A stretch of 64,000 bases of DNA from Novakomyces olei. Taxonomy: Eukaryota. This document shows, piece by piece, positions 1 to 20,382 of the stretch (its first letter is position 1; each line of letters starts with the position of its first letter). A model generated the notes under the pieces. That model did not search any database. It saw only the letters and a list, made by a program, of their open reading frames with translations, and was not told where the DNA came from. The stretch spans positions 62,001 to 126,000 of the forward strand of contig JADEYG010000002.1 in assembly GCA_016906335.1 (NCBI GenBank), read 5' to 3'. The translations under genes were made by a program, and so were the position numbers.

Positions 1-1659
1 CGCGTCAGTCTCAACTACTGACAGTCGGTCCGGATCGAAGTATCGTAATATCGGCGCTTGCAGGAATGTCGACTTTAGTTCCTGAAACGCTGATTCGGTG
101 GCTTCGGTCCATTTGAAATCCCGATCTTTCTTCAATAACGCGGTCAGAGGCTGACAGATTTTGCTGTAGTTTTGTATAAACCGCCGATAGAAGTTTGCAA
201 AACCTAGGAATGCTAACAAGTCTCGCTGAGTCTTCGGGGTCGGCCAGCTCCGTACTGCCTCCACCTTCCCGGGGTCCATTTTAACGCCCTCAGTGCTTAT
301 TACGAAACCCAGGAACTGCGTCTGAGTAACATTAAACTCGCACTTTTCCAATTTCACATATAGGCTTGCTTCTCTGAGCCTCTCCAACACGTCTCGTACG
401 TGCTTCACATGATCTTCCTCGTTCTCTGAGTATATCAAAATGTCATCCAAGTATACCACTGCATACTGGTCTAGGCATGGCCTTAAAACGTCATTCACCA
501 GCGCTTGAAACGACGCCGGAGCGTTCGTTAAGCCAAACGGCATCACTTGATACTCAAAGTGACCGTATCTTGTGCGGAAGGCCGTCTTCCATTCGTCACC
601 CCTTTTAATACGCACTAGATTATAAGCTCCTCTCAAGTCTAGTTTCGTAAAAACGCGCGAAGTACGAACTCGGTCCAACAACTCCGAGATTAGCGGAAGA
701 GCGTACCGATTCTTTATTGTAACCGCATTGAGTCCTCGGTAGTCTACGCATAATCGTAACGATCCGTCCTTTTTCTTTACGAATAATATCGGCGCTCCAG
801 CCGGACTAGACGAATGCCGAATAAAACCTTTCTCCAGGCTTTCTGCCAAATACTCGCGTAGTGCCTTAAGTTCCGGTTCCGACAACGCATATATTGGCCC
901 GTGGGGAGGATGTGCTCCGTCACTTAGGGGTATAGCGTGGTCCCACGCCTTGTGGTCCGGGAGGCGACTCGCACTCTTCTTATCAAATAACTCTCGGAAG
1001 TCCTCATAACTTTCCGGTACTTTCTGTAATTCTTCGGCAACCGGCGCCTCTTGCTGCTCGGTTCCATACACACAAAGAGACCCACTCTGGCCATCTTTGA
1101 ACAATCTCTTAAACACTGCCGCTGACACCAATCCTACCTCTGGCATTGGGCCGCTCAAACATAGTCTTCTGCAGAACTTCGACGTAAACTCAATCCGTGA
1201 GCTCGTCCAATCAATATCCGGGTTGTGTAGATCTAGCCACGGCCGGCCTAGAACTATCGGATAATTTCCAATCTTCATCAAGTTAAACTGTATCTCTTCG
1301 CTATGGCCTGGAACTTCGGTGGTGTGCATCCGAATTGGTTCCGTGTGTCTCACAATAGCTCCGGAAGACGCTTCGCTTCCATCAAATACAGTAACAGTTT
1401 CCGGTGTATCCTTACGAGTGGTAGGGATATGTAATTTCCGGATAAAATCCAAATCAGCAAAATTTGAAGTCGCGCCGGAGTCAATCATTGCAGTAACTTT
1501 GCGCTGACCTCCGGGTGCTTCAATCAATACGGGAATAGTCAAGTGAGGAGAATATAACGGTGACGGTGACAAGTAAAACGATAATCTATGGTGTACGATA
1601 CTACGCCCTTCTGGCAGACTCAGGCAGGGCTTCAGTATTTTTCCTGAGCCTCGTCGTTT
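1..1659 (-). CDS. pol: Pol of element D (protease and RT, partial), -1 frame relative to gag
   Basis: Manual translation gives protease VTAMIDSGATSNF (~1460-1497) and RT AVVYLDDILIYS (~430-460) in the same frame. The ORF runs off the window, so it is absent from the ORF track. Confidence 0.9.
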
Positions 1660-2588
1660 TCCTCGTAATACTCTTCCGTCTCCGCAATTGCGGCATGCTG
1701 TCCCAAGGCGCGGTTTGATGTTGGGCATTCCGCGGCTCGGTGACCCGGCTTGTCGCATCGGAAACAGCGGAAAGTGCGGCGAATATCATTTGGCTTGGAC
1801 TTTCCGGGGCCTTTAACTCTGGCATTTCGTCGGACTTCAGACTGTGCACTGACTGAGTCGACTTCCATAGGCATTGTTTCCGGTACAATTCTTCCCTGTC
1901 GATTTGTCTCGTGTGCTTCGTATCGCCGGACTGTTCTCGGCAGCACAACATCTAATCGACGATCATACAGTCGGTTGTCGATCGTAACCGCTGCTTTCAT
2001 AAACTCCGTAAGTGATTTCGGTTTCGGTACTTTCGCTAGTTCGTCCAAAATCTGCGGCTTCAGTCCCGCTTCGAACAAAAACATAAGCGCCGCATCGTTA
2101 AAATCCAGGAACGACGCGAGCTGTTGGAACCTCGCTACGTAACTAGATACCGAACCAATTTGCTTTAGCTTCTTTAACTCTCTCTTTGAGTTCTCATATG
2201 TATCGAAATCCCCAAACGTACGCGAGATCTCTGTCACGAATCCTTCGTAATCACTCAACATCTCCGGTTCCGGAGTCACCCTCATCTGTGACTCGAACCA
2301 ACTAAAAGCCGGACCGCGTAGCAGGGATGCTGCAAATCGTACACGGTCTCGGTCTGTTCCGAAGTCCCTACTGTTGGCTTCCAAGTACATTTTCACATGG
2401 GCTAGGAACTGCCGAAGTTCCGGTCGGGCTCCATGGAATTTGTCCGGTTTCTCAATCGGCGAAGGTCTTGCCTTCCCGGCACTAAACTGCATAGCTCGCA
2501 GCTCTTCGTTCTGACGACGTATTGTCTCAATCTCACCTTGCAGTTGCACCAAGGCATCAAAGTAATTAATGTCTTGTCCAGACTCCAT
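1632..2588 (-). CDS. gag: Gag of element D (capsid plus CCHC zinc knuckle)
   Basis: 318-aa ORF with PDKFHG, FAASLLRGPAFSWF, LKQIGSVSSYVARF and the knuckle CFRCDKPGHRAAEC. Confidence 0.93.
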   Translation of the reverse strand: MESGQDINYFDALVQLQGEIETIRRQNEELRAMQFSAGKARPSPIEKPDKFHGARPELRQFLAHVKMYLEANSRDFGTDRDRVRFAASLLRGPAFSWFESQMRVTPEPEMLSDYEGFVTEISRTFGDFDTYENSKRELKKLKQIGSVSSYVARFQQLASFLDFNDAALMFLFEAGLKPQILDELAKVPKPKSLTEFMKAAVTIDNRLYDRRLDVVLPRTVRRYEAHETNRQGRIVPETMPMEVDSVSAQSEVRRNARVKGPGKSKPNDIRRTFRCFRCDKPGHRAAECPTSNRALGQHAAIAETEEYYEENDEAQEKY

Positions 2589-3211: not shown

Positions 3212-3327
3212 CAATACCAGAAAGAGACAAATACAATGGGAAAAGCAAGATAAACCATACAACTCAATATCACAAAAGGGTGCATCCGTTGTAAGTTCAA
3301 TCACAATTGATCCAAAGAAAAGGATTG
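3212..3327 (+). pseudogene. 116-bp pol fragment of element B between the D and A insertions
   Basis: Near-identical to A 5502-5617 and continues at 8955 after the GATTG duplication. Confidence 0.9.
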
Positions 3328-3621
3328 TGTTAGGAGTGTAGATAATAAATAATTAAACATTGAATTACTTAAAGGGTCCTAAACGTGTACGGATTAAATC
3401 TGGAACCTCGGCATTTGATTAATAATTAATCACGCCATAGCGGAAGCTGACTCATGATTAGTCAAGGCTGACTCATAATTAATCACGCCATTTCGGGCTT
3501 TCGGACAATGGATTATTAATCCATTACAGGAGTCTATAATAAGGACACGGTTTCCCATAGTTTAGAACATAGTTTTTTCTATCTTTTAATTTATTTGTTA
3601 CAACAGTGAGTTACCCTCACA
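3328..3621 (+). repeat. 5' LTR of element A
   Basis: TGTTAGG...CCTCACA, direct repeat of 8661-8954. Confidence 0.97.
3448..3475 (+). promoter_or_regulatory. Cluster of AP-1/YAP-type bZIP sites in LTR A
   Basis: TGACTCA 3448-3454, TTAGTCA 3458-3464 and TGACTCA 3469-3475, upstream of the TATA-like motif at 3535. Confidence 0.55.
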
Positions 3622-4318
3622 CATTTTTTCACTGCTAACTAGGACAGTGACTCCCCCGTCTGGACAACGCCGACGGATTTACCCTCACGTTTTCTCTGAG
3701 CCTTTTGCAAATCTTTTGCGTCAGGCGAAAACTGATCCTCCTAAGGATAAGGTGTTGACTGGATATTGCCGTCAATACCCGGAGTCCAAGGAGCGAAAAC
3801 AAAACTCTGAGTCTGGACCTGCCGACCAGAGTGTTCGACCCTCTTCCAGCTTGACTCTTCAGCTGTCGAAGAGAAGAGAAAGAAACGCTCGCCGTTCAGA
3901 GGCCTTCAAGGAGCGTAAGAGAATTGAAACGGTTTCTAAACCATTTGCAACACCTCGTCCGAAACCACTTCCAACCCCGATTCCGGCCCCGCTTCCGAAA
4001 CCAGTTCCAGCACCAGTTCCAGCACCAGTTCCAAGATTACCGCTTACGGAGGAAGAAATATTTCGAAAAGAAGCTCATTGGACAAGCAAGGTTGCGGCTC
4101 AAATCAAATACGAGGACACCTACAATAATCTTGTGGCCAAAAGAATACAGGAACTGAGCAGGAAAAAAAAAACTAAGTATTTGCTTGACAACATCGTTGA
4201 GGACGAATACAGAATCCGTCTTTTTAAAGGAGAGGATCCAGACAAAGTTGAAAAGGACTACTACGAACATTTGGAACAAGGACGACAAAAGCCATCCTAT
4301 CTTAATACGCTTTTTTAA
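3605..4318 (+). CDS. Accessory ORF0 of element A, 223 aa, unknown function; join(3605,3648..4318)
   Basis: Open frame with no internal Met, homologous to 15319..16029 in C. Basic motif KRRERNARRSEAFKERKR, Pro-rich linker, conserved C-terminal domain. Confidence 0.85.
   Translation, partial: SELPSHIFSLLTRTVTPPSGQRRRIYPHVFSEPFANLLRQAKTDPPKDKVLTGYCRQYPESKERKQNSESGPADQSVRPSSSLTLQLSKRRERNARRSEAFKERKRIETVSKPFATPRPKPLPTPIPAPLPKPVPAPVPAPVPRLPLTEEEIFRKEAHWTSKVAAQIKYEDTYNNLVAKRIQELSRKKKTKYLLDNIVEDEYRIRLFKGEDPDKVEKDYYEHLEQGRQKPSYLNTLF
3606..3647 (+). other. Predicted 42-nt spliceosomal intron spanning the LTR end and PBS region of A
   Basis: Donor GTGAGT 3606-3611, branch GCTAAC 3634-3639, acceptor CAG 3645-3647. 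Removal gives CAAC-A|TG-ACT-CCC, in frame with ORF0. Confidence 0.8.
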
Positions 4319-4389
4319 ACTAGCTCATTAATTTAACTCAAATTTATTAATCTACTTTATTCATAAAATTAATTTAATTTTAATTAATT

Positions 4390-7300
4390 ATGGATTTTAA
4401 GATTAAATTACCTGAGCCTACGAAATTGAATGGTCGCCCAATGACCCATAGAGAGTTCCAGTCATGGAGACACTCTATGGTAAAATGGCTCGCCTATGTC
4501 AAGACAGGCGAACATCCTATTGCTATTTCAGATGTCGACTTGATTAGCATGTTTCTCGAATCAAATGCTTCGATCTATGCTGAGGAGCTCCGTGACAATA
4601 CTTCTCTCACAGCAAATCAAATGCTTGATCACCTTGAGAGAAGCATTGTTCCGAACGATTATCTACCTCGTGCATACAGCAAGTTTGTCACCTTCACTCA
4701 GGGCACAAGAAGCATTAGCCAATATGCAACGCAGCTTAAGCTCAAATCAATGGAACTTGAGATAGTCAACGAGGCAATCTTGATTCAACAATTCATACAT
4801 GGATTAAATGAAAGAACCAAACCTCAAATAATGGGATCATTGAGAAGTGCATTTGGAACTCAATCCGGTGATAGTTCGAACATGGTCAAATGGAATTGGC
4901 AAAACGTTGTTGATGTGGCTACAGGTTATGACTTTGCGACAGCAAGACCCTTTGTTGGAAATATGAGTACGAAAGCAGCCAGTCAGAGAACAGAGGCACG
5001 AGCTGATGTTCCTGAAAAGAGTGAACCAGAGAAACCTATTCTCCGAACAAGATGTACTTTTTGTCGCAGAACTGGGCACACCTACGAGCAATGTTTCAAA
5101 AGAAAGAATCAGTCAAGTGTGAGTGCTCTTCAAACAAGCACAGAAATAGATAGCGAAGAAATAAAACTTGAGTATCACTGTTCCGCTGTCCAAAATACCG
5201 GTCAACAATTTCTTGTAGTCCTACCAATTGATATAAACGGTAAAGAAATAAAATGTCAAATACTTATTGACACCGGGAGTGACCTTGACGTTATTGATTC
5301 GAACTTCTGCAATGTTCACCGACCAAAATACTATGAAAGTGACCATAAAATTGAAATGGCATTTCAAGGATCAAGAACTATTAGCCGACACATGGCAAGA
5401 ATACGATTTAAGGGATATGAGTTGAATTGCGCAGTGGCAAGACTGAGAACCTCTGACCTTCTCATCGGAATGGGAACACTAAGCAAACTTGGAGCAATTG
5501 TCAATACCAGAAAGAGACAAATACAATGGAAAAAACAAGATAAACCATACGATTCAATATCACAAAAGGGGGCAGCCGTTGTAAGTTCAATCACAATTGA
5601 TCCAAAGAAAAGGATTGATGTTCAGTCAGTTCGAGAACAAGACACAATTGACTCAAATAAGGTACTGGAAGTGCTACAAGACAAGTTCAAGCAAACTTTG
5701 GTAGCAAGTCCACCAAGCAAATTGCCTATAATGAGACCAGTGGTTGCAACATACGAGCCGATCGACCCACACAAGAAGTACAATATCAAAAAGTGGTATC
5801 CAAGCAAGAAGCTAATGATGCCCTTAAAACTGAAAATTGATGAACTTCTACACGCCAAAATGATATCAATTTCTACAGAAGAGCCAAGTGCCATATTATT
5901 TCCTATTCCTAAAGACAAGGACATGGTCAACAAGCTCACAGATCCAAAAGAAATCAAGAATTATCTGCGATTTGTCAATGACGCTAGACCTCGGAATGCG
6001 AACATGAAACGCTTTTACATTCAGGTTCCTCGCATTGACATTGTAGTTCAAGATATTGCCAGAGCAAAATACAGAACTAAGATTGACTTGAAGGACGCTT
6101 TCTTTCAATCTAGAATACAGCCTGGGCAAGAACATTATACGGCATTTTGGACGCCATTTGGAATATACCAATGGAATGTGATGCCACAAGGAGATCGAAA
6201 CTCTACTGCTATACAACAGCAGCTTATGGAGGAATTATTCAGACCCTACATTGGCATTTGGATGACAGTATATGTTGACGACATCATCATATACGATGAC
6301 GATGTCCAGGAACACTTGGATCACCTAGTGATTGTCTTTGGAATAATGTCTAAATGGGAACTATACGCTAGTCCAGCCAAGACCTTTCCATTCTGCAAAA
6401 GCTTTGTGGTACTAGGCAGACAGATCAGTGATGAAGGAATCAAAATGACTGAAAAATCAAGAAACTCCATACTACGACTAGAAACTCCAAAGAACATGAA
6501 ACAAATACAGAGACTGGTGGGCATGCTAAACTGGATTTCAACGTTCATACCCAATTTATCGTCACACATCTCAACATTCACTGAAATGAAGGAGTTTTCC
6601 TGGGATGAAACTAAGCAGAAAGGATTTGACAAAATAAAGTCTGCAGTTCAGCAAGACATAATACTCAAGCCATTTAACCCAGAGCCTCTGAACAATGGAA
6701 CAGAGAAATTATTCATGGGAATAGATGCCTCTCTGGTGGGCACTGGAGGTTGGCTAGGTCAAGGAAAAGAATGGCAAACATGCAGAATAATTGGGTTTAC
6801 CTCTAAGAAACTTGGAATAGCAGAATCCCACTATCCAGTTCACGAACTTGAATATCTAGCATGCATCAGAGCATTGGAGCATTTCGAAATATATGCTAGA
6901 GGATATCAGGTAAATTGTTTGACAGACAATAAAGCATTAAGTCGTCTTTTTTACTCGAAGAACGTTATGCTGTCGCGACGTCATCTACGATGGATGGATT
7001 TTTTGAATGAATTTGACATCAATATTATACACGTGCCAGGAACACTTAACGTCTTAGCAGACTTATTGTCACGCTCTCATTCACACTCAAAGGTCGCTGG
7101 AATCTCTATTGAACAAACCCCAAATACAGATATAGATGTAGAGATACACAATCTCTATCTAAAGGATACATATTGGGCAGAAATACTTGCAATATTGAAA
7201 AGCAACGAAGAAAATCCAGATACCGAAAAACTTAAATCAAGATATTGTCTCAAAGATAATCTCATTCACCTCAAATTTGATGACCGAATCTGTATTCCTT

Positions 7301-8685
7301 CAGGCTTCACAAACAAGATAATACAAGAACTTCACGACACATATCAAGGTGGACATGGAGGCATAAATAAGACAATAGCCGGTGTTGCGCGGACTTATTA
7401 TTGGCCAGCAATGGCAAAAGAAATTAAGGACTATGTGAAGTCGTGCGAGACGTGTGCTAAGAGCAAAATTACACCTCACAAGCCCATTGGTTTACTATTA
7501 GAGCTGAACATACCAAAGGCTCGATGGGAAACCATTGGAATGGATTTCATTACTGGGCTTCCTTTATCTGGAAAGGAAAAATACGATGCAATAATTTGTA
7601 TTGTTGACCGACTCACCAAACGCGCGCATTTTTGGCCAACACACACAACTATAACCGCTGAAGGCACAGCAGCTCTATTCTTGGATCGATATTTCTGCTT
7701 ACATGGTCTACCAAAAATAATTATTAGTGACCGAGATGTCAGGTTTATGTCAGAGTTTTGGACACAACTCACAAAGGTTCTTGAAGTCAAACTCAAACCA
7801 TCATCAAGCTATCACCCACAAACAAATGGGCAAACGGAAAGAACAAACAGGGTTCTCGAAGATTACCTACGCCTATTTACATATGCCAATCGTAACAACT
7901 TCACATGGCACAAATTGCTTTCGTTTGCAGAATTCTTTTATTCCTCAAGCAAACACTCTGCTATCACGATGACTCCATTTGAAGCTGACCTAGGATACAA
8001 TCCAAGAAGCTTAAGTGATCTTGCAATGTCTATTCCACAAAGTCAAGACAATTCATCATTCCTTGAAACTCTAGCAGCCAATCAAATACTCTGTCAAGAT
8101 GCCATAAGAGCCGCACATGACTTATCAAAGATTTATGCAGACAAAAACAGACTCAACATTGAATATGAAGTCAACGACTATGTATACCTGAGTACTGCAA
8201 ACATTCGAGAAATACCTGAACTATTTCAACATGACTTGACCAGAAAACTTCAATCCAAATACATTGGACCATACAAAATTGTTAAAAAGGTCAGTCCAGT
8301 GGCATATGAACTGGAACTACCCACAAATCTAAAATATCATTCAGTTGTTCATATCTCACAACTCAAAAAGCACAATGCAATGACTGAACAGAACGAACGT
8401 GAACAACCAAAACCAAAAGCTTTGCGACGCTATAAAGATAATACAGAACTTTATGCTATACAAAGCATAGTTGACCACGCTTGGTTCAGAGCTGACAAAA
8501 AGTCTACAACACCTAAAAAAGGCTACACCTTACTTTATCGAATTCGCTGGGAAGGATACAATCCTGACGAAGACACATGGGAGCCAAAACAACACCTACT
8601 ACATTCCAGACAACTCCTTGACAACTACAATTCGACACATCTCGAATTAGTGGGGGAGGATGTTAGGAGTGTAGATAATAAATAA
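4390..8685 (+). CDS. gag-pol: Single-ORF Gag-Pol of element A (Gag-CCHC-PR-RT-RNase H-IN-chromodomain)
   Basis: 1431 aa: CTFCRRTGHTYEQC, LIDTGS, YVDD, IDAS/ELE/TDN RNase H, HHCC plus GMDF/ISDRD/QTER integrase, YIGPY, chromodomain YRIRWEGYNPDEDTWEP. The stop lies inside the 3' LTR. Confidence 0.97.
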   Translation: MDFKIKLPEPTKLNGRPMTHREFQSWRHSMVKWLAYVKTGEHPIAISDVDLISMFLESNASIYAEELRDNTSLTANQMLDHLERSIVPNDYLPRAYSKFVTFTQGTRSISQYATQLKLKSMELEIVNEAILIQQFIHGLNERTKPQIMGSLRSAFGTQSGDSSNMVKWNWQNVVDVATGYDFATARPFVGNMSTKAASQRTEARADVPEKSEPEKPILRTRCTFCRRTGHTYEQCFKRKNQSSVSALQTSTEIDSEEIKLEYHCSAVQNTGQQFLVVLPIDINGKEIKCQILIDTGSDLDVIDSNFCNVHRPKYYESDHKIEMAFQGSRTISRHMARIRFKGYELNCAVARLRTSDLLIGMGTLSKLGAIVNTRKRQIQWKKQDKPYDSISQKGAAVVSSITIDPKKRIDVQSVREQDTIDSNKVLEVLQDKFKQTLVASPPSKLPIMRPVVATYEPIDPHKKYNIKKWYPSKKLMMPLKLKIDELLHAKMISISTEEPSAILFPIPKDKDMVNKLTDPKEIKNYLRFVNDARPRNANMKRFYIQVPRIDIVVQDIARAKYRTKIDLKDAFFQSRIQPGQEHYTAFWTPFGIYQWNVMPQGDRNSTAIQQQLMEELFRPYIGIWMTVYVDDIIIYDDDVQEHLDHLVIVFGIMSKWELYASPAKTFPFCKSFVVLGRQISDEGIKMTEKSRNSILRLETPKNMKQIQRLVGMLNWISTFIPNLSSHISTFTEMKEFSWDETKQKGFDKIKSAVQQDIILKPFNPEPLNNGTEKLFMGIDASLVGTGGWLGQGKEWQTCRIIGFTSKKLGIAESHYPVHELEYLACIRALEHFEIYARGYQVNCLTDNKALSRLFYSKNVMLSRRHLRWMDFLNEFDINIIHVPGTLNVLADLLSRSHSHSKVAGISIEQTPNTDIDVEIHNLYLKDTYWAEILAILKSNEENPDTEKLKSRYCLKDNLIHLKFDDRICIPSGFTNKIIQELHDTYQGGHGGINKTIAGVARTYYWPAMAKEIKDYVKSCETCAKSKITPHKPIGLLLELNIPKARWETIGMDFITGLPLSGKEKYDAIICIVDRLTKRAHFWPTHTTITAEGTAALFLDRYFCLHGLPKIIISDRDVRFMSEFWTQLTKVLEVKLKPSSSYHPQTNGQTERTNRVLEDYLRLFTYANRNNFTWHKLLSFAEFFYSSSKHSAITMTPFEADLGYNPRSLSDLAMSIPQSQDNSSFLETLAANQILCQDAIRAAHDLSKIYADKNRLNIEYEVNDYVYLSTANIREIPELFQHDLTRKLQSKYIGPYKIVKKVSPVAYELELPTNLKYHSVVHISQLKKHNAMTEQNEREQPKPKALRRYKDNTELYAIQSIVDHAWFRADKKSTTPKKGYTLLYRIRWEGYNPDEDTWEPKQHLLHSRQLLDNYNSTHLELVGEDVRSVDNK

Positions 8686-8954
8686 TTAAACATTGAATTA
8701 CTTAAAGGGTCCTAAACGTGTACGGATTAAATCTGGAACCTCGGCATTTGATTAATAATTAATCACGCCATAGCGGAAGCTGACTCATGATTAGTCAAGG
8801 CTGACTCATAATTAATCACGCCATTTCGGGCTTTCGGACAATGGATTATTAATCCATTACAGGAGTCTATAAAAAGGACACGGTTTCCCATAGTTTAGAA
8901 CATAGTTTTTTCTATCTTTTAATTTATTTGTTACAACAGTGAGTTACCCTCACA
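8661..8954 (+). repeat. 3' LTR of element A
   Basis: Direct repeat of 3328-3621, preceded by the PPT and followed by TSD GATTG. Confidence 0.97.
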
Positions 8955-8980
8955 GATTGATGTTCAGTCAGTAGCAAACT

Positions 8981-11815
8981 TTGGTTACAAATCCACCAAG
9001 CAAATCGCCTATAATGAGACCAGTGATTGCAACATACGAGCCAATCGACCCACACAAGAAGTACAATATCAAAAAGTGGTATCCAAGCAAGAAGCTAATG
9101 ATGCCCTTAAAGCTGAAAATTGATGGACTTCTACACGCCAAAATGATATCAATTTCTACAGAAGAGCCAAGTGCCATATTATTTCCTATTCCTAAAGATA
9201 AGGACATGGTCAACAAGCTCACAGATCCAAAAGAGATCAAGAATTACCTGCGATTTGTCAATGACGCTAGACCTCGGAATGCGAACATGAAACGCTTTTA
9301 CATTCAGGTTCCTCGCATTGACGTTGTAGTTCAAGATATTGCCAGGGCAAAATACAGAACTAAGATTGACTTGAAGGAAGCTTTCTTCCAATCTAGAATA
9401 CAGCCTGGGCAAGAACATTATACGGCATTTTGGACGCCATTTGAAATATACCAATGGAATGTGATGCCACAAGGAGATCGAAACTCTACTGCTATACAAC
9501 AGCAGCTGATGGAGGAACTATTCAGACCTTACATTGGCATTTGGATGACAGTATATGTTGACGACATCATCATATACGATGACGATGTCCAAGAAAACTT
9601 GGATCACCTAGTGATTGTCTTTGGAATAATGTCTAAATGGGAACTATACGCTAGGCCAGCCAAAACCTTTCCATTCTGCAAAAGCTTTGTGGTACTAGGC
9701 AGACAGATCAGTGATGAAGGAATCAAAATGACTGAAAAATCAAGAAACTCCATACTACGACTAGAAACTCCAAAGAACATGAAACAAATACAGAGACTGG
9801 TGGGCATGCTAAACTGGATTTCAACGTTCATACCCAATTTATCGTCACACATCTCAACATTCACTGAAATGAAGGAGTTTTCCTGGGATGAAACTAAGCA
9901 GAAAGGATTTGACAAAATAAAGTCTGCAGTTCAGCAAGACATAATACTCAAGCCATTTAACCCAGAGCCTCTGAACAATGGAACAGAGAAATTATTCATG
10001 GGAATAGATGCCTCTCTGGTGGGCACTGGAGGTTGGCTAGGTCAAGGAAAAGAATGGCAAACATGCAGAATAATTGGGTTTACCTCTAAGAAACTTGGAA
10101 TAGCAGAATCCCACTATCCAGTTCACGAACTTGAATATCTAGCATGCATCAGAGCATTGGAGCATTTCGAAATATATGCTAGAGGATATCAGGTAAATTG
10201 TTTGACAGACAATAAAGCATTAAGTCGTCTTTTTTACTCGAAGAACGTTATGCTGTCGCGACGTCATCTACGATGGATGGATTTTTTGAATGAATTTGAC
10301 ATCAATATTATACACGTGCCAGGAACACTTAACGTCTTAGCAGACTTATTGTCACGCTCTCATTCACACTCAAAGGTCGCTGGAATCTCTATTGAACAAA
10401 CCCCAAATACAGATATAGATGTAGAGATACACAATCTCTATCTAAAGGATACATATTGGGCAGAAATACTTGCAATATTGAAAAGCAACGAAGAAAATCC
10501 AGATACCGAAAAACTTAAATCAAGATATTGTCTCAAAGATAATCTCATTCACCTCAAATTTGATGACCGAATCTGTATTCCTTCAGGCTTCACAAACAAG
10601 ATAATACAAGAACTTCACGACACATATCAAGGTGGACATGGAGGCATAAATAAGACAATAGCCGGTGTTGCGCGGACTTATTATTGGCCAGCAATGGCAA
10701 AAGAAATTAAGGACTATGTAAAGTCGTGCGAGACGTGCGCTAAGAGCAAAATTACACCTCACAAGCCCATTGGTTTACTATTAGAGCTGAACATACCAAA
10801 GGCTCGATGGGAAACCATTGGAATGGATTTTATTACGGGGCTTCCGTTATCTGGAAAGGAAAAATACGATGCAATAATTTGTATTGTTGACCGACTCACT
10901 AAACGCGCGCATTTTTGGCCAACACACACAACTATAACCGCTGAAGGCACAGCAGCTCTATTCTTGGATCGATATTTCTGCTTACATGGCCTACCAAAAA
11001 TAATTATTAGTGACCGAGATGTCAGGTTTATGTCAGAATTTTGGACACACCTCACAAAGGTTCTTGAAGTCAAACTTAAACCATCATCAAGCTATCACCC
11101 ACAAACAAATGGGCAAACGGAAAGAACAAACAGGGTTCTCGAAGATTACCTACGCCTATTTACATATGCCAATCGTAACAACTTCACATGGCACAAACTG
11201 CTTTCATTTGCAGAATTCTTTTATTCCTCAAGCAAACACTCTGCTATCACGATGACTCCATTTGAAGCTGACCTAGGATACAATCCAAGAAGCTTAAGTG
11301 ATCTTGCAATGTCTATTCCACAAAGTCAAGACAATTCATCATTCCTTGAAACTCTAGCAGCCAATCAAATACTCTGTCAAGATGCCATTCGAGCTGCACA
11401 TGACTTATCAAAAATTTATGCAGACAAAAACCGACTCAACATTGAATATGAAGTCAACGACTATGTATACCTGAGTACTGCAAACATTCGAGAAATACCT
11501 GAACTATTTCAACATAACTTGACAAGAAAACTTCAATCTAAATACATTGGACCATACAAAATTGTTAAAAAGGTCAGTCCAGTGGCATATGAACTGGAAC
11601 TACCCACAAATTTAAAATATCATTCAGTTGTTCATATCTCACAACTTAAAAAGCACAGTGCAATGACTGAACAGAACGAACGTGAACAACCAAAACCAAA
11701 AGCTTTGCGACGCTATAAAGATAATACAGAACTTTATGCTATACAAAGCATAGTTGATCACGCTTGGTTCAGAGCTGACGAAAAGTCTACAACACCTAAA
11801 AAAGGCTACGCCTAA
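8981..11815 (+). pseudogene. Disrupted pol of element B (RT-RNase H-IN)
   Basis: 944-codon frame homologous to A, with a ~60-bp deletion near 8972, a TTA>TAA stop within the chromodomain, and the 5' part cut off by insertions. Confidence 0.9.
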
Positions 11816-11943
11816 CTTTACTGAGTTCGCTGGGGAGGATACACTCCTGAAGAAGACACATGGGAGCCAAAACAACACCTACTACATTCCAGACAACTCC
11901 TCGACAACTACAATTCGACACATCTCGAATTAGTGGGGGAGGA

Positions 11944-12226
11944 TGTTAGGAGTGTAGATAATAAAAATAATTAAACATTACTTAAAGGGTCCTAAAACAA
12001 TCTAAAAACCTCGGCATTTGATTAATAATTAAGTACGCCATAGCGGAAGCTGACTCATGATTAGTCATGGCTGACTCATAATCAATCATGCCATTTCGGG
12101 CCTTCGGACAATGGATTATTAATCCGTTACAGGAGTCTATAAAAGGACACAGTTTCCCATAGTTTAGATACATACTTTTTCTATCTTTTTTTTATTTATT
12201 GGTTACAACAGTGAGTTATCCTCACA
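11944..12226 (+). repeat. 3' LTR of element B
   Basis: Diverged copy of LTR A with indels. Retains both TGACTCA sites, TATAAAAG and AACAGTGAGT. Confidence 0.92.
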
Positions 12227-12378
12227 CTCTCCCACTCGGGAGGAGGATGTTTCGACTTCTGTGACTGGCACTCTGGAAGACACGGAGATAATACAAACTG
12301 CTTCCACTCGGGAGGAGGAAAATACCAGCACAAATAGTCTGGACGATGACATAATGAGTACTAATAAAACGGAAAAAA

Positions 12379-14200
12379 ATGAAAAGCATGGACGCAAAGA
12401 GCAATTTAAACTCAGTAGATGTGACCGAGCTTTACGACCCAATGGAGGTCGGAGACGAGTCACTGAAAAGAAAAAGAGTGGGAGCCGAAGAATATATAGA
12501 CCCAGAGACGATTGTACTAAATGAGCTACCTCTAATTCGCCGGTCTGACAGACTTAAAGAGAAGGATCTAAAGAGGACACGTATACAACAACATAACATC
12601 TCTGGCCCATATCTGGCAAAAGACGTAATAATACCTGTAAGTGTAAAGCAGGCAATACATTCAAGACATGGCCAGGAATACAAAAGGGCTATGGAAGCGG
12701 AACTAGAGTCATTATTCGAAAAAAATGTAATTAAATCTCTAGATACAAATGAAGTTCCTAATAAAGTTGTGTCTACGAAATGGGTGTTCGCCGTGAATTC
12801 AAATCACTTAGGTGAAGTTACGAGGTTTAAAGCCCGGCTCGTTGCTCGTGGGAATGAGCAGACACAGATGATCTGGATACTTACGCTTCTACGCTTGGAT
12901 TTAAAGAGCTGCGCATGCTGTATGCACATGCTGCCATAAGAAAGGCTAAAATCCTAACACTCGACATTAAAACAGCATTTTTAAATGCGCCGATTGATGA
13001 GGAGCTATATATCAAAATAGCTCACGAAGGGGGTAATCCAGAGATATACAAAGTGCAAAAAGCACTCTACGGTTTTCGACAATCGCCACGACTCTGGTAC
13101 AACATGTACAAAGATTTTTTGGAGGACGAACTTGGCTTTTCCCGTACAGGCAAGGAGAAAATATCTTTATCAGATCTACGGGGATGTTTCTATGTGTCGT
13201 CGCTATTTATGTAGATGACACAATGGTCATCTGTGAAAATGAGAGCATGAGCCTAGCTGTGATTGAAAAAACCCAGCTCAAATTTGAGACTGATGAGGCC
13301 GAACCTATTACTAAATTCCTGGTGATTGAGACTACACAGTCGCCCACGCTGGACACTGTTTCAGTGTGCGCAAAGGAATATATTCGAAAACTATTGGTTA
13401 GATTCGAAACCGGAGAATACTATTCACAGAAGAGACCATCCAGTAAAGTGCCTTTGCTAGCAGAAGAAGGTAGCCCTGGTGCACGTTTACTAGAAGGTCA
13501 AGAAGTAAAAAGATATCAAAGCCTAGTAGGATCCTTGAGATACGTCACCACTGTTGCAAGACCCGACATTGCAAATGCAGTAAGGCGAGTATCATATGGA
13601 TTGCAAGGACCTACAGTTCACAACATGAGAATGGCAGAAAAAATATTAGGATATCTAAAGTCTACTATGAGTTTTTGTCTAACCTATCATCCTAGAAAGG
13701 ATATAGACAAACAGCTTTCGGTCTACACTGATGCAAGCTTTGCTAGCTCAGAAGACAATGGAAAGTCTTGCATGGGAATTGCTATTCTCATGGCTGAAGC
13801 TCCAGTGTATTGGGAAAGCAAGACAATCAGGGATTACAAAGGTAGGTCAATGGATACAGAGCTAGTGGCGCTATACGAGGGTCTAAATCAGGCCAGGCAC
13901 CTACACTTTATACTCCATCAATTGGAGCATAATCAACTCCAAGAAATACAAGTATTTGAAGATAACACAGGTGTTATTGAAACCCTACGACGAAACAAGC
14001 CATACGGAGGCCACCCTGCTCTCCAAAATAAGGCAGAGGCATTAAAGGCATGTGTGCAAAACCGTGAAGCAAATATATGCTATATTTGCACGGACGAACA
14101 GTTGGCAGATGGATTTACAAAGGTACTTTCAGTTAATAAAATGCAGGAATTTGTGTCACGACTAGGGATGAATTCAAATACAGGGACAGCGAACGCATGA
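12379..14200 (+). pseudogene. Frameshifted Copia RT-RNase H
   Basis: Motifs split over three frames: KWVF..RFKARLVARG; DIKTAFLNA and KALYGFRQSPRLWY; YVDD, YTDAS, FEDN, QLADGFTK. Confidence 0.92.
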
Positions 14201-14939: not shown

Positions 14940-15299
14940 TGTTAGGCCATAGTGTAGATAGTAAAAATAAAATTAAAAATGACATAATTAAATTAAATTA
15001 ATTCACTCCAAATAGGGAATTTAACCGATTTGGAGGAATATTTAATTACTAATCATTAAATCAAGCCACTGATCGGGTATCTGTATCTTATCAATGATAA
15101 GGTGATTACTAATTGATCGGTTACTTCTGATCCTATCTGATTACTAATTGATAGGAAAGTCTTGATCCTATCTCTTGGCAAATTACGAAGATAAGAGCTG
15201 AGCCTTGAAGTCTATAAAAGGACAAGGTTTTCCATAGTTTAAGGGTAGATTTAATTAATCTAAAAGTTATAACAGTGAGTAATTTCCACAGTTATAACA
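14940..15299 (+). repeat. 5' LTR of element C
   Basis: TGTTAGG...GTTATAACA, TATAAAAG at 15213, direct repeat of 20370-20729. Confidence 0.97.
15046..15147 (+). promoter_or_regulatory. Three YAP/Pap1-type response elements in LTR C
   Basis: TTACTAA at 15046-15052, 15106-15112 and 15141-15147, upstream of the TATA box. Confidence 0.5.
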
Positions 15300-16029
15300 A
15301 CTTTTTTCACTGCTAACATTGTCAGTGAATCCGTCAGGAGACAGCCGACGGCCTCGCATTGTCTACTCTGAGACATTTGCAAATCTCTTGAAGCAGGCAA
15401 AAACCGATCCAAAGGTTGTTGTCTCGGCTGGCTCTATCCGCCGAAGCAATACACCTAAGGATAAGGATAAAACCTCTGTGTCTGGACTTACCGACCAGAG
15501 TGCCCACTCAGAGAAAAATACCTCGATTCATCAATTGAATAAGAGGAAAGAAAGAAACGCTCGCCGATCGCAGGCATTCAAAGAGCGTAAACTCAACGAT
15601 CGAATTTCCAAGGGGCCTGAATCAATTGCTGCTATTGCGGCAAAGGTGCTCAGAAAACCTCCTCCACCAGCGCCGAGACTTGGTCCTTACCCAGCTCTTA
15701 CAGCTCCTTCAGTTTCGCCGGCCACTATTTCTACTACAACTCCTCGTTTACCTCTATCAGCGGAAGAAGTTTTTCGAAAACAAGCGCACTGGACAAGCAA
15801 AGCGGCGGCCAATCTACGTTACGAGGAAACATACAACAAATTGGTGGCCAATCGCATTCAAGAGCTACACAATAGGAAGAAAACAAAATATCTTCTGGAC
15901 AACATCGTTGAGGACAGATTCAAAATTCGTCTCTACAGAGGAGAAGATCCAAACAAAGTTGAGAAGGATTATTACGATCACTTGAAAAGTGGACAGCAAT
16001 CACCAGCGTTTTTTAATACTTTGTATTAG
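15274..16029 (+). CDS. Accessory ORF0 of element C, 234 aa; join(15274,15326..16029)
   Basis: No internal Met. Homologous to ORF0 of A (FANLL.QAKTDP, RNARRS.AFKERK, AHWTSK, KKTKYLLDNIVED, GEDP.KVEKDYY). Confidence 0.85.
15275..15325 (+). other. Predicted 51-nt spliceosomal intron spanning the LTR end and PBS region of C
   Basis: Donor GTGAGT 15275-15280, branch GCTAAC 15312-15317, acceptor CAG 15323-15325. Removal gives TAAC-A|TG-AAT-CCG, in frame with ORF0. Confidence 0.8.
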
Positions 16030-16095
16030 TCTTTTATATTTAATATATTTAATTCTTTATCAATTTAATTTAAATTGATTAAAATATATTCTAAA

Positions 16096-19000
16096 ATGGA
16101 CTTCAAAATCAAGCTGCCTGAACCAGCAAAGCTGAATGGTCATTCAATGACCCATAGGGAGTTCCAATCATGGAGAGGCTCTATGGTTAAATGGCTGACA
16201 TATGCCAAAGCAGGAGGCAGTGTCACCGGGATTTCAGATATAGACTTAATTAGCATGTTCCTCGAATCGAACGCTACAATCTATGCTGAAGAACTCAGGG
16301 ACAATGCTAGTGTAACGACAGATCAGATGCTTGATCATCTGGAGCGAAGCATTGTACCCAACGACTATTTACCACGCGCTTACAGCAAGTTTGTTACCTT
16401 CGCTCAAGGAACAAAAAGCATTAGCCAATATGCCACGCAACTTAAATTGAAATCAATGGAACTAGAAATAGTTAACGAAGCCATCTTGATTCAACAATTC
16501 ATCCATGGGCTAAATGAGAGAACAAAGCCTCAAATAATGGGATCTTTGAGAAGTGCATTTGGAAACCAGTCGGGAAACAACACAGGAATGACGAAATGGA
16601 AATGGCAAAGTGTGGTTGATGTGGCAACAGGCTACGATTTTACTGCAACAAGACCATACGTAGGAAACATGAATCCTAAACAAGGCAACCAACAAACTGA
16701 AACAAAGGCAACTACTTCTGAGAAGAAAGAACCAGAGAAGCCAGCCCTCAGAACAAGATGTACCTTTTGTCGCCGCACTGGGCACACGTACGAGCAATGC
16801 TTTAAACGAAAGAATCAATCAACCATCAGTGCTCTTAAAGAAGATTCTGGAATAGTTAGCGAAGAAATCAAACTTGATTACAATTGTTCTGCTGTCCAAA
16901 ACACAAACCAACAATTTCTAGTTAATTTACCTGTGGAAATAAATGATAAAAAAATCAAATGTCAGGTCCTGATTGATACTGGAAGTGATATTGACGTTAT
17001 TGACTCAAACTTTTGCAATGTTCACCGACCAACATACAAAGAAAGTGACCACAAAATTCAAATGGCCTTTCAAGGATCGAAAACTGTGAGCAGATATATG
17101 GCCAAAGTCATGTTCAAGGGGAGCGAGTTAAATTGCGCCGTTGCAAGACTTAGAACTTCTGATCTATTGATTGGCATGGGAACACTAAGTAAGCTTGGGG
17201 CAATTGTGAACACTCGCAAACGACATATACAATGGCAGGACGATGCAAATGAAAGAAGGTTTGTCAAGCCAGAAGTACTTCCTGTAGTCAGCTCAATAAC
17301 AATTGATTACAACAAGAGAATTGAAGTCCAACAAGTTACAAATGAGGACTTGGTTGACCCAGAAAAAGTACTGCAGATACTTCAAGACAAGTTTGATCAA
17401 ACTTTGATCAAGGATCCTCCAAGCAAGTTGCCTATAATGAGACCTGTGGTTGCTACATATGAGCCAATTGATCCAGAAAAAAGGTATAACATAAAAAAGT
17501 GGTACCCAAGCAAAAAGCTTATGTTGCCTCTGAAAGTAAAGATTGATGAGCTTTTAGAGGCAAAGATGATCTCAATCTCTAGCGAAGAACCTAGTGCAAT
17601 ATTGTTTCCAATTCCCAAAGACAAAGAAATGGTTAACAAGCTAACAGATCCTAAAGAAATAATTAAATATTTGAGATTTGTTAATGATGCTCGACCTCGC
17701 AATGCAAACATGAAGCGTTTCTACATTCAAGTACCACGTATTGACATAGTTGTACAAGACATTGCCCGAGCAAAATACAGAACTAAGATTGATTTGAAGG
17801 ACGCTTTCTTTCAATCAAGAATACAACCCGGACAGGAACACTACACGGCATTCTGGACACCATTTGGGATATATCAGTGGAACGTCATGCCTCAAGGAGA
17901 TCGTAATTCCACTGCTATACAGCAACAACTTATGGAGGAGCTCTTCAGACCTTACATTGGAATATGGATGACAGTCTATGTCGATGACATAATAATATAT
18001 GACGATGATGTCCAAGCACATCTGGACTATCTGGTGCTAGTTTTTTGTATTATGTCAAAGTGGGAACTATACGCGAGTCCAACCAAAACATTTCCGTTTT
18101 GCAAGAACTTTGTTGTGCTGGGGAGACAAATTAGTGATGAAGGAATCAAAATGACTGATAAATCAAAAAACTCCATACTGCGACTGGAACCACCAAAGAA
18201 TATTAAGCAAGTACAAAGATTGGTTGGAATGCTGAATTGGGTTTCAACGTTCATACCAAACTTATCCTCACACATTTCAACATTCACTGAGATGAAGGAG
18301 TTTTCTTGGGACGAAACAAAACAAAAAGGCTTTGATAAAATCAAGAAAGCAGTTCAGCACGACATAGTACTTTCACCATTTGACCCTGAGCCCCTGAATA
18401 ATGGTACAGAAAAACTATTCATGGGAATAGATGCTTCACTAGTTGGTACAGGTGGATGGCTAGGACAAGGACAAGACTGGAGAAAATGCAGAGTAATAGG
18501 CTTCACGTCGAAAAAATTAGGGATAGCTGAATCACACTATCCTGTACATGAACTTGAATATCTTGCATGCATACGAGCTCTTGATCATTTTGAAATATAT
18601 GCTCGAGGTTACCAAGTCAATTGTTTAACAGACAACAAAGCTCTGAGTCGCCTCCTTTACTCCAAAAATGTTATGCTTTCACGAAGACACCTTAGATGGA
18701 TGGATTTTTTGAATGAGTTCGATATTAATATTATTCATGTTCCTGGAACTGAAAATATCTTGGCTGATCTACTTTCAAGAACACACGGAAAAACAGCTGA
18801 TGTAGGTGCAATTTCCGTACAAATCTCGCCCCAGAATAATTTAAAATTTGAGCTGGCCTACGAAAAGGACAAACATTGGTCCAAAATACTCACTATTTTG
18901 AAAAATCCAAACAATTTTGCAGACAACGAAAGCGTAAAAATCAAATCGCGCTACTACATCCAAGACGGTATAATACATCTCAAATACGATGATAGAATCT

Positions 19001-20382
19001 GCCTACCAACAGATTTCACAAACATCATAATAAGAGAATCACATGACACCTACCAAGGAGGGCATGGAGGCATAAAGAAAACAATAGCAGGCGTAGGCCG
19101 CAAATACTACTGGCCAGGTATGGCAAAAGAAATAAATGAATATGTCAGATCATGTGAAACGTGTGCTAAAAGCAAAATTATACCTCAAAAGCCAATTGGA
19201 CTATTGCAAGAACTCGATATACCGAGTAATCGTTGGCAAACAATAGGCATGGACTTCATCACTGGACTACCAGCTTCGGGGACTCAAAAGTTTGATGCTA
19301 TAATTTGCATAGTTGATCGTCTAACCAAAAGAGCTCATTTCTGGCCCACGCACACAACTGTAACAGCACAAGGAACTGCACAGCTATTTTTGGAAAGATA
19401 CTTCTGTCTACACGGCTTACCAACTGCAATAATAAGTGACAGAGATGTAAGATTTATGTCTGAATTTTGGCAGACACTTACAAAAATTCTTCAAATCAAA
19501 CTGAAGCCATCATCAAGCTATCACCCACAGTCCAACGGTCAAACCGAACGTACAAATCGTGTATTGGAAGACTATCTTCGTCTTTTCATTTATGCCAATA
19601 AAAACAACTTCAGCTGGCACACATTATTATCGTTTGCCGAATTCTTTTACTCTTCAAGCCAACACTCCGCCATATCAATGACACCCTTTGAGGCGGATCT
19701 TGGCTACATCCCACGCAGTCTTACTGACTTATCAATGCCCGAAACACCGAACAAAGATACTTCCTCTTTTATAAACACTCTGGAGGCCAACAAAATTCTT
19801 TGTCAAGATGCTATCAGAACAGCACATGATTTATCAAAAATCTATGCGGATGAAAAGCGACTAAATGTTGAATATAATGTTAATGACCTGGCTTATTTAA
19901 GCACAGCCAACATACGAGAAATACCGGAGCTATTCCACGATGTTCTCACACGAAAATTACAATCAAAATACATTGGTCCATTCAAAATTATTCAAAAAAT
20001 CAGTCCTGTTTCATATGAATTGGAACTACCAACATCCATAAAATATCATCCCGTTGTTCACATTTCTCAATTAAAGAAACATCATCCAATGAACAGTCAC
20101 AACACCAGAGAACAACCTAAGCCTAAAGCTCTGCGACGCTACAAAGACAACACAGAATTATATGTAATTAAACAAATCGTTGATCATGGATGGTTCAAAG
20201 GATCTAAAAAATCCAATACACCGAAACAGGGGTATAAGCTTTTATACCGAATCCGCTGGGAAGGCTATGGACCTGAAGACGATACATGGGAACCTAAATC
20301 TCACTTGGCTAACTCAACCAACCTGCTGAACAACTACAATTCGACACATCTCGAATCAGTGGGGGAGGATGTTAGGCCATAG
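16096..20382 (+). CDS. gag-pol: Single-ORF Gag-Pol of element C with chromodomain
   Basis: First ATG at 16096 (MDFKIKLPEP, as in A). CCHC, LIDTGS, YVDD, RNase H, integrase, YIGPF and YRIRWEGYGPEDDTWEP. Confidence 0.97.
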   Translation: MDFKIKLPEPAKLNGHSMTHREFQSWRGSMVKWLTYAKAGGSVTGISDIDLISMFLESNATIYAEELRDNASVTTDQMLDHLERSIVPNDYLPRAYSKFVTFAQGTKSISQYATQLKLKSMELEIVNEAILIQQFIHGLNERTKPQIMGSLRSAFGNQSGNNTGMTKWKWQSVVDVATGYDFTATRPYVGNMNPKQGNQQTETKATTSEKKEPEKPALRTRCTFCRRTGHTYEQCFKRKNQSTISALKEDSGIVSEEIKLDYNCSAVQNTNQQFLVNLPVEINDKKIKCQVLIDTGSDIDVIDSNFCNVHRPTYKESDHKIQMAFQGSKTVSRYMAKVMFKGSELNCAVARLRTSDLLIGMGTLSKLGAIVNTRKRHIQWQDDANERRFVKPEVLPVVSSITIDYNKRIEVQQVTNEDLVDPEKVLQILQDKFDQTLIKDPPSKLPIMRPVVATYEPIDPEKRYNIKKWYPSKKLMLPLKVKIDELLEAKMISISSEEPSAILFPIPKDKEMVNKLTDPKEIIKYLRFVNDARPRNANMKRFYIQVPRIDIVVQDIARAKYRTKIDLKDAFFQSRIQPGQEHYTAFWTPFGIYQWNVMPQGDRNSTAIQQQLMEELFRPYIGIWMTVYVDDIIIYDDDVQAHLDYLVLVFCIMSKWELYASPTKTFPFCKNFVVLGRQISDEGIKMTDKSKNSILRLEPPKNIKQVQRLVGMLNWVSTFIPNLSSHISTFTEMKEFSWDETKQKGFDKIKKAVQHDIVLSPFDPEPLNNGTEKLFMGIDASLVGTGGWLGQGQDWRKCRVIGFTSKKLGIAESHYPVHELEYLACIRALDHFEIYARGYQVNCLTDNKALSRLLYSKNVMLSRRHLRWMDFLNEFDINIIHVPGTENILADLLSRTHGKTADVGAISVQISPQNNLKFELAYEKDKHWSKILTILKNPNNFADNESVKIKSRYYIQDGIIHLKYDDRICLPTDFTNIIIRESHDTYQGGHGGIKKTIAGVGRKYYWPGMAKEINEYVRSCETCAKSKIIPQKPIGLLQELDIPSNRWQTIGMDFITGLPASGTQKFDAIICIVDRLTKRAHFWPTHTTVTAQGTAQLFLERYFCLHGLPTAIISDRDVRFMSEFWQTLTKILQIKLKPSSSYHPQSNGQTERTNRVLEDYLRLFIYANKNNFSWHTLLSFAEFFYSSSQHSAISMTPFEADLGYIPRSLTDLSMPETPNKDTSSFINTLEANKILCQDAIRTAHDLSKIYADEKRLNVEYNVNDLAYLSTANIREIPELFHDVLTRKLQSKYIGPFKIIQKISPVSYELELPTSIKYHPVVHISQLKKHHPMNSHNTREQPKPKALRRYKDNTELYVIKQIVDHGWFKGSKKSNTPKQGYKLLYRIRWEGYGPEDDTWEPKSHLANSTNLLNNYNSTHLESVGEDVRP

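Follow-up and report, generated by a model that had tools for sequence, protein, structure and literature searches.

The stretch of DNA considered here, called the window in what follows, comprises 64,000 nucleotides of fungal nuclear DNA from Novakomyces olei (contig JADEYG010000002.1 of assembly GCA_016906335.1, positions 62,001 to 126,000 of the forward strand), and all coordinates are counted from its first letter. Long uninterrupted frames encode an MDM31/MDM32 protein, a CAAX protease, a GH76 protein, alpha-adaptin, an aldo-keto reductase and a basic leucine zipper (bZIP) factor, and the first 22 kb of the window are crowded with long terminal repeat (LTR) retrotransposons. Two of these, elements A and C, carry an additional open reading frame (ORF) in their 5' leader, past the LTR/primer-binding region and before gag, and it is this frame, ORF0, with which the present work is concerned. 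Judged from its sequence, ORF0 is an accessory gene, specific to its lineage, that belongs to a Ty3/gypsy chromovirus of fungi.

Element A lies on the forward strand. Its 294-nt 5' LTR (3328-3621), bounded by TG..CA, differs at 1 of 294 nt from the 3' LTR (8661-8954), which is preceded by the polypurine tract GGGGGAGGA, and the 5-bp target duplication GATTG flanks the element at 3323-3327 and 8955-8959. One gag-pol ORF (4390-8685, 1431 aa) encodes gag with a CCHC knuckle, protease, reverse transcriptase, RNase H, integrase and a chromodomain, with matches to the Pfam families Retrotrans_gag, RVT_1, RT_RNaseH, Integrase_H2C2, rve, SH3_Tf2-1 and Chromo. The order protease-reverse transcriptase-RNase H-integrase, the C-terminal chromodomain, the TG..CA LTR ends, the 5-bp target duplication and the polypurine tract identify A as a Ty3/gypsy chromovirus; with its single gag-pol ORF, the element carrying ORF0 is Tf1-like. 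Element C, on the same strand, spans 14940-20729 and has the duplication CCTGG on both sides. Its 360-nt 5' LTR (14940-15299) shows 0/360 differences from the 3' LTR (20370-20729), and its gag-pol ORF occupies 16096-20382. Both elements are complete, with gag-pol and target-site duplications intact. When the gag-pol ORFs of A and C are compared, 73% of the synonymous sites differ (pS 0.73), a saturated value, and the ratio of nonsynonymous to synonymous substitution rates (dN/dS) is 0.047. Since the two gag-pol ORFs are so far apart at synonymous sites and yet the LTR pairs are nearly identical and the target duplications intact, A and C are old lineages, each of which has been mobile recently.

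A further copy of the same family, element B (3212-3327 plus 8955-12228), is older, truncated at its 5' end and interrupted by the insertion of A. It has no 5' LTR, ORF0 or gag; its segment 3212-3327 matches pol at 5502-5617 with 95% identity, and its 3' LTR (11931-12228) is 65% identical to the LTR of A in ungapped register.

In element A, ORF0 occupies 3590-4318 of the forward strand, that is, 242 codons from stop to stop closed by the TAA at 4316-4318, and in element C it occupies 15298-16029 (+), with 243 codons, the frame opening only at 15298. Neither copy contains an ATG codon, i.e. neither encodes a methionine, and the codon at position 3647 is GTG. By chance, a frame of this length would stay open with a probability of about 2e-6 per copy, and the remaining two frames contain 5 and 11-17 stops. 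Between A and C the proteins are 52-57% identical and the DNA 65.6% identical, and the same architecture is found in both: an N-terminal motif, FANLL..QAKTDP (3704-3739), with 87% identity over the 15 codons tested; a basic block (3860-3922), 81% identical and predicted to form a helix; a proline-rich variable linker (3923-4030), 32% identical and with a 12-codon indel between the copies; and a C-terminal domain of 95 residues (4031-4315), 69% identical and predicted to be all-helical. Translated from a CTG or GTG start, the likely product would have 223-239 aa, a mass of about 26 kDa and a pI of 9.9-10.2 (in A, 223-228 aa and pI 9.9). No hydrophobic stretch was found in either copy, the maximum 19-residue Kyte-Doolittle mean being 0.38 in A and 0.48 in C. 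From the stop of ORF0 to the gag ATG there are 71 nt in A (4319-4389, 87% A+T) and 66 nt in C, the A+T content of the spacers being 87-92%.

The comparison of the two copies argues strongly that ORF0 encodes a selected protein, which we regard as very probable. In the gap-free alignment of the C-terminal domain, the differences at codon positions 1, 2 and 3 number 19, 16 and 47, and the dN/dS of this domain is 0.11 in frame, as against 1.6 and 1.2 when the frame is shifted by +1 and +2. With the Nei-Gojobori method, the whole frame has a ratio of 0.24, as against 0.12 in the C-terminal domain and 0.35 in the N-terminal part, and all six alignment gaps between A and C are whole codons, in frame. 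The uncorrected ratio of nonsynonymous to synonymous differences (pN/pS), counted from a CTG conserved in both copies and given here with its bootstrap 95% interval, was 0.42 for the whole frame (0.34-0.52; 0/2000 resamples reached 1 or more). It varied along the protein, with 0.59 (0.26-1.17) in the first 20 codons, which overlap RNA elements of the leader, 0.19 (0.00-0.56) in the FANLL block, 0.95 (0.65-1.51) in the spacer between the blocks, 0.17 (0.03-0.41) in the basic block, 0.59 (0.40-0.83) in the proline linker and 0.27 (0.18-0.40) in the C-terminal domain. A pattern of this kind, in which drifting linkers connect three functional modules, is what a real protein would be expected to show.

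An earlier note on this DNA, prepared from the letters and their translations, had proposed that ORF0 is a conserved accessory protein in which a YAP-like basic motif occurs without a leucine zipper. Its description of the frame stands: the N-terminal block, the basic block, the variable proline-rich linker and the C-terminal domain of about 95 aa are shared by A and C; synonymous differences prevail, as both the codon-position counts and the dN/dS of the C-terminal domain indicate; no signal peptide or transmembrane stretch is seen in the hydropathy profile; and a proline-rich tract, not a zipper, follows the basic block. The overall dN/dS of 0.24 is not near 1. The conserved accessory protein is likewise borne out, with purifying selection visible block by block in two intact, recently inserted elements, whereas the likeness to YAP/bZIP proteins, to which we return below, did not hold. 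The note further took ORF0 for a putative nuclear nucleic-acid-binding regulator or anti-silencing factor and named an NLS or RNA-binding arm as an alternative for the motif, and the basic block does fit a bipartite pattern of nuclear localisation.

The absence of ATG from ORF0 and the AUG-free leader, neither of which appears in the earlier note, proved to be the most informative features. In element A, none of the three frames has an ATG over the 881 nt (3509-4389, +) that end where gag opens with its ATG at 4390, and in element C the same is true of the 1001 nt (15095-16095, +) ending at the gag start codon at 16096. From their composition, 13.8 (A) and 17.0 (C) ATG triplets would be expected, and zero was found in 0/3000 shuffles of each leader; the reverse-strand triplet CAT is present 11 times in A and 9 times in C. 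When both strands of the window are considered, the leader of C is the longest ATG-free run and that of A the second longest, the next reaching 511 nt. Moreover, the depletion is more than an absence of methionine, because the Met-free codon set, when shuffled, still makes out-of-frame ATG: when the codon order of ORF0 was shuffled, out-of-frame ATG averaged 3.75 in A and 5.65 in C and were absent in only 52/5000 and 6/5000 cases, respectively. For comparison, the first 228 codons of gag contain 9 in-frame and 13-15 out-of-frame ATG, and methionine makes up 2.4% of gag-pol versus 0% of ORF0. In A and C alike, the gag ATG itself is flanked by A at -3 and G at +4. A different Ty3/gypsy element in the window has an ATG in its leader, 150 nt upstream of gag, so that this leader is not AUG-free.

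Since there is no ATG in ORF0, a non-AUG codon probably serves as its start. The combination of an AUG-free leader with a selected ORF is the signature of leaky scanning. We consider it probable, though well short of certain, that ORF0 is a selected protein made from a near-cognate start, with leaky scanning to gag on one and the same RNA. The full-length RNA would then be the genome and a bicistronic mRNA at once. A minority of the scanning ribosomes would begin ORF0 at a near-cognate codon, for which CUG 3632 and GUG 3647 are the candidates, and the majority would pass the ORF0 start and reach the strong-context gag AUG after a further, unimpeded scan of about 750 nt. In frame and ahead of the first conserved block of the protein, the near-cognate codons kept in A and C are CTG (3632/15310), GTG (3647/15325) and ATT (3677/15358). 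Because the frame of C opens at 15298, the start should lie between this position and the FANLL block, an interval that includes the candidate start region of A (3632-3649, +), with CTG at 3632-3634 and GTG at 3647-3649, both in frame and both conserved in C.

A functional ORF0 protein might, in another explanation, be produced by way of a spliced, subgenomic or read-through transcript that provides an AUG or a different route of entry, the ATG-free leader serving only gag. Accessory proteins of Ty3/gypsy elements elsewhere do come from spliced mRNAs, as the accessible part of the study on CERV of Cer1 describes (PMC10309623), and the poor context of the candidate start codons would agree with such a route. 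Nevertheless, there is no ATG in 3509-4389 or 15095-16095, so that a splice would have to import its AUG from U3 or from beyond the element's borders, and the LTR ATGs located upstream open, on direct reading, frames of only 3-5 codons. In addition, out-of-frame ATG is avoided within ORF0 beyond what its Met-free codon set predicts, as seen in the codon-order shuffles, an avoidance to be expected only if ribosomes scan through ORF0. For these reasons this explanation is judged unlikely. As for a read-through or spliced ORF0-gag fusion, it was rejected, since the frames differ in A and two in-frame stops intervene in C. Direct reading of element A also showed the 100 nt or so that precede its gag ATG to be free of the GT dinucleotide.

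The region of the candidate starts contains conserved RNA elements as well. A 16-nt element, identical in A (3624-3639) and C (15302-15317) and on the forward strand, is separated from the LTR end by two bases and includes the CTG at 3632; it resembles a primer-binding site in being located where one is expected, though its first letters are not TGG. Within the LTR, the sequence that complements it best (3597-3610 in A, 15266-15279 in C) would form with it an interrupted duplex of 4+6 bp, with -9.9 and -10.4 kcal/mol, respectively. Compared with self-priming of the Tf1 type, the partner of the 16-mer is this interrupted duplex and not a perfect 11-mer, and the comparison depends on a transcription start placed by inference; the imperfect LTR pairing hints at a Tf1/Tj1-style self-priming with an imperfect primer. 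No tRNA gene was found in the window with ARAGORN, and no Rfam family was found across it at gathering thresholds. The 16-mer also pairs with 3645-3650 in a conserved hairpin, which has the CTG in its 5' arm and the GTG in its 3' arm, and a second conserved hairpin lies downstream. The same 6-mer of the 16-nt element can pair either with its LTR partner or with the downstream arm bearing the GTG. Further upstream, a TATA-like box (3535-3542) is found in a block of the 5' LTR conserved between A and C. The sole difference between the two LTRs of A (T at 3540, A at 8873) falls within this box.

On these elements a more elaborate reading can be built, namely a small switch in which the ORF0 start, scanning to gag and the (self-)priming fold would be mutually exclusive and the ORF0 protein would feed back on the choice. 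The CUG and GUG starts of a methionine-free, orphan nuclear protein would be placed in the two arms of the primer-binding-element hairpin, whose 5' arm would alternatively pair with the matching U5 sequence, and the protein, by binding its own leader through an arginine-rich helix, would act back on the state of the RNA. We give this possibility little credence.

The same overlap raises the question of whether the frame is translated at all. Were it not, its conservation would reflect functions of the leader RNA (priming, dimerisation, packaging), and the absence of ATG would reflect the need for gag to have the first AUG. Such an explanation can draw on the fact that the 5' end of the frame overlaps the invariant 16-mer and the two conserved hairpins, as well as on the lack of an ORF0 homologue in the databases searched. 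However, a constraint on RNA gives no 19/16/47 excess at third codon positions, nor a dN/dS of 0.11 in frame against 1.2-1.6 out of frame, and it does not account for a 242-codon frame kept open in two copies that are 35% diverged (65.6% nucleotide identity) and separated by six in-frame indels. It must be considered highly improbable. We hold in equally low regard the idea that ORF0 is a long upstream open reading frame acting in cis, in which the act of translation itself would tune Gag or switch the RNA to priming or packaging. Its position upstream of gag on the same RNA, and the location of the start codons in hairpin arms that share the possible self-primer pairing, would suit this role, but it offers no reason for amino acids being conserved in three blocks (pN/pS 0.17-0.27) and not in the spacer (0.95), nor for a C-terminus conserved right up to the stop.

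With regard to the basic block, the earlier note had reported 9 of 17 residues identical to a YAP/Pap1-type basic region, and this was replaced by a comparison with a bZIP protein of the window itself. The comparator was a host gene at 39715-41052 (-). This gene has 446 codons and encodes a C-terminal YAP-type bZIP domain (bZIP_1, E 2e-12). BLASTP pairs the ORF0 block with the host basic region in the register given by the earlier note, with 7/20 residues identical and an E value of 2.6. Shuffles of the 20-residue block reached 7/20 in 245/20000 cases for C and 293/20000 for A, i.e. in 1.2-1.5%, and shuffles of the whole protein reached it in any window in 205/3000 (C) and 143/3000 (A), i.e. 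in 5-7%; because of these frequencies, the likeness is not clearly beyond chance. Alignment of ORF0 with the window's own bZIP domain by hhalign gave a probability of 0.41% over 6 columns. No bZIP family was reported for ORF0 by hmmscan against Pfam at E<=10, where A matched only CysG_dimeriser (E 0.13, unrelated) and C had no match, although the scan does recognise bZIP_1 in the host gene. Among PDB chains, a profile search with the same cut-off of E<=10 yielded two unrelated ones and no bZIP. Neither copy has a leucine heptad repeat after the basic block, the 45 following residues entering the proline-rich tract. In fact, this tract begins 10-25 residues past the block, at a place taken in the host bZIP by the heptad helix, and the predicted helix of ORF0 ends at residue 115. 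The spacing N-x7-R/K, which we take to be a bZIP signature, is literally present as N99-x7-K107 in both copies, a match that is chance-like in a helix rich in lysine and arginine. The YAP likeness of the earlier note was thus not upheld, and ORF0 was judged not to be a bZIP protein, given the missing profile match, the missing zipper and the shuffle controls.

There remains, as the least probable of the explanations weighed, a DNA-binding regulator that would bind the LTR or host promoters through a zipper-less basic region of YAP/Pap1 type: the literal N-x7-K spacing and a BLASTP pairing in the same register that few block shuffles equal are set against the blank Pfam and PDB searches, the hhalign and BLASTP values, the free-window shuffles, the proline tract in place of a heptad helix and the fact that bZIP basic regions grip DNA only as a zipper dimer.

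It is more likely that the basic helix is a nuclear-localisation signal (NLS) or an RNA-binding arm than a bZIP region. What we take to be the bipartite NLS consensus (two basic residues, a spacer of 10-12 and at least three basic residues in five) is matched as a pattern by K94-R95, 11 residues and KERKR in A or KERKL in C, and the composition of the block resembles that of arginine-rich RNA-binding arms. A second basic cluster, K-K-x-K, is found in the C-terminal domain and agrees with an NLS consensus quoted in the part of PMC10309623 available to us. AlphaFold2, with models built from only two sequences, predicted a disordered N-terminal half, a helix at residues 87-115 that includes the basic block (pLDDT about 70) and a C-terminal domain made up of four helices. 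Tentatively, and with less confidence than in the existence of the protein, the ORF0 product may thus be nuclear and nucleic-acid-binding. The basic helix, of about 30 residues, would be an NLS and/or an RNA-binding arm, and the helical domain of about 95 residues would dock onto a partner. In this way the protein might act in the nucleus on the RNA, the cDNA or the particle of the element, for example in the export of RNA or the import of the pre-integration complex. As to possible relatives within the element, a paralogy of ORF0 with its own gag was discarded (hhalign probability 0.15%), and a resemblance of 27 residues of the C-terminal domain (4208-4288) to the strand region of the element's chromodomain (8536-8613; BLASTP 11/27, E 0.25; hhalign 0.66%) was attributed to chance.

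Searches for relatives outside the window were blank. ORF0 had 0 matches at E<=0.01 in a word-indexed protein search and 0 at E<=0.001 in a profile search of 1.84 billion representatives, and a sequence search of the PDB gave nothing credible. Six-frame pattern scans found no relative among 514 metagenome, 78 viral and 63 prokaryote contig matches, and the ESM Atlas held no usable match to the whole ORF0 or to its C-terminal domain. The Pfam, profile and PDB searches recovered no described accessory family. Structure prediction followed by Foldseek, which the earlier note had suggested as a check, was not informative either: the models were of low confidence and gave 0 PDB matches at E<=0.001, and with VIA-align against 48,161 chains the best Z was 5.9, the top rows being unrelated helical proteins under the noise for helical models, so that no fold was assigned. 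No match to known upstream accessory ORFs appeared in the library searches, which included rice retrotransposon proteins and were made without a direct comparison. As for gag, no relative was found by word search or among 521 metagenome pattern matches, and the relatives of pol that were found, from plants, a chytrid and metagenomes, are only 29-40% identical. As the relatives of pol are so distant, the element family appears to be absent from the libraries searched, and the blank ORF0 searches are partly due to poor coverage of the fungal lineage.

Several points weigh against the proposed bicistronic expression of a selected ORF0 protein and are considered together here. As there are two sequences, each selection statistic is one pairwise comparison, and the synonymous sites are near saturation. 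The first 20 or so codons overlap the cis element, and whether conservation there is at the protein level is unclear from a pN/pS of 0.59 with an interval of 0.26-1.17. The context of the candidate starts is not consistently good, the CTG having T at -3 and the GTG having A at -3 in A and T in C, and yeasts are generally weak at near-cognate initiation. The AlphaFold2 models are of low confidence, with a pLDDT of 52.5 for the whole protein and of 60.1 for the C-terminal domain (pTM 0.36). Finally, we infer the function of the ORF0 protein from composition and pattern alone, and the transcription start from the conserved TATA-like box alone.

The window contains other features that belong to its retroelement content or stand apart from it. 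Further retroelements are located at 1-2588 (-), 12379-14200 (+) and 21413-22138 (-); they are the different Ty3/gypsy element mentioned above, which has separate gag and pol frames, a frame-broken copia-like pol and a copia-type gag. Where the window is richest in GC (58%), a frame of 613 codons is open at 31880-33721 (+), with no Pfam match at E<=0.001, and it is overlapped by a run of 1324 nt without ATC (31591-32914), the second longest of all triplet-free runs in the window.

Descriptions of fungal LTR retrotransposons usually give gag-pol and nothing else, and since gene callers are blind to ORFs without ATG, accessory genes such as ORF0 may be systematically missed. To our knowledge, leaky scanning past a non-AUG cistron has been documented so far for rice tungro bacilliform virus (RTBV) and badnaviruses. 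Should leaky scanning past ORF0 hold true, it would extend this form of expression past a non-AUG upstream cistron from plant pararetroviruses to their Ty3/gypsy relatives, and it would provide a signature with which more cases could be sought, that is, a selected open frame inside a long AUG-free leader. A tractable system would be offered as well, with young, apparently intact elements in a yeast-like host, in which the use of an orphan nuclear protein to a retrotransposon and the setting of a two-protein ratio by the choice of start codon would become accessible questions.

When ORF0 is compared with known systems, the resemblance to YAP/Pap1 bZIP proteins (PF00170) consists in a basic helix with asparagine and Ala-Phe equally spaced and in the 7/20 residues shared with the bZIP of the window, and profile match, zipper and statistical support are all missing. 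In murine leukaemia virus, a CUG that precedes the gag AUG in the leader starts glyco-Gag, a minor second product of the same genomic RNA. Glyco-Gag, however, extends Gag in frame at its N terminus, whereas ORF0 forms a cistron of its own, which stops 71 nt (A) or 66 nt (C) short of gag and in A is read in another frame than gag.

Among LTR retrotransposons, sense ORFs between the 5' LTR and gag have been described for the Drosophila MDG1 group, with sORF1 and sORF2 (bioRxiv 10.1101/2025.03.14.642691), and for rice Retrosat2, RIRE3 and RIRE8, with their ORF0 (PMC3485330), and extra ORFs of plant LTR retrotransposons have been the subject of a general review (PMC7264820). As far as the available portions of these papers go, such upstream ORFs are like the ORF0 studied here in their position, in being lineage-restricted, in evolving faster than pol and in having a low Ka/Ks; they are unlike it in belonging to other kingdoms, and those portions make no mention of AUG being absent or of an AUG-free leader. 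According to the available text, sORF2 of MDG1 is a small membrane fusogen, whereas the fungal ORF0 has no hydrophobic segment. With respect to its possible role, the closest comparison is with CERV, from the C. elegans Ty3/gypsy element Cer1, which the accessible part of the report describes as an orphan, fast-evolving nuclear protein with a short basic NLS, needed for the export of genomic RNA (PMC10309623). A role on the element's own genomic RNA, as depicted there for CERV, is the kind of role that we think most likely for ORF0. The same account gives CERV a length of 517 aa and a possible zinc finger and derives it from a spliced mRNA of five exons with the same start as gag; ORF0, in contrast, has no detectable similarity to CERV and shows no sign of splicing.

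In its expression, ORF0 is best compared with ORF I of RTBV. The part of the source available to us states that this ORF is started at an AUU by about 10% of the ribosomes, the rest scanning 900 nt without an internal AUG, and that changing the AUU to AUG brings downstream translation drastically down (PMC5902531). RTBV and the badnaviruses, as presented there, are also reverse-transcribing and have an AUG-less upstream ORF, with about 900 nt free of AUG in RTBV as compared with 881 and 1001 nt here. The features of the RTBV type present in the fungal elements are an upstream ORF and leader free of AUG in three frames, no AUG within ORF0 itself and a good context for gag. Differences are apparent as well, since RTBV, in the same source, is a plant pararetrovirus with three ORFs and shunting over a structured leader with short upstream ORFs, and it has no sequence similarity to the elements described here; moreover, its translation was established experimentally, whereas that of ORF0 is deduced from sequence. 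In the literature retrieved, which was available in part, no AUG-less upstream cistron in an AUG-free leader was described for LTR retrotransposons, those of fungi included. A survey of fungal Gypsy elements by Novikova et al. shows, in a figure legend within its available part, an 'add. ORF' of unknown function, which could bear on priority (PMC2864245). As far as these sources reach, extra ORFs upstream of gag are known in other kingdoms, and an AUG-less one placed in an AUG-free leader appears to be new.

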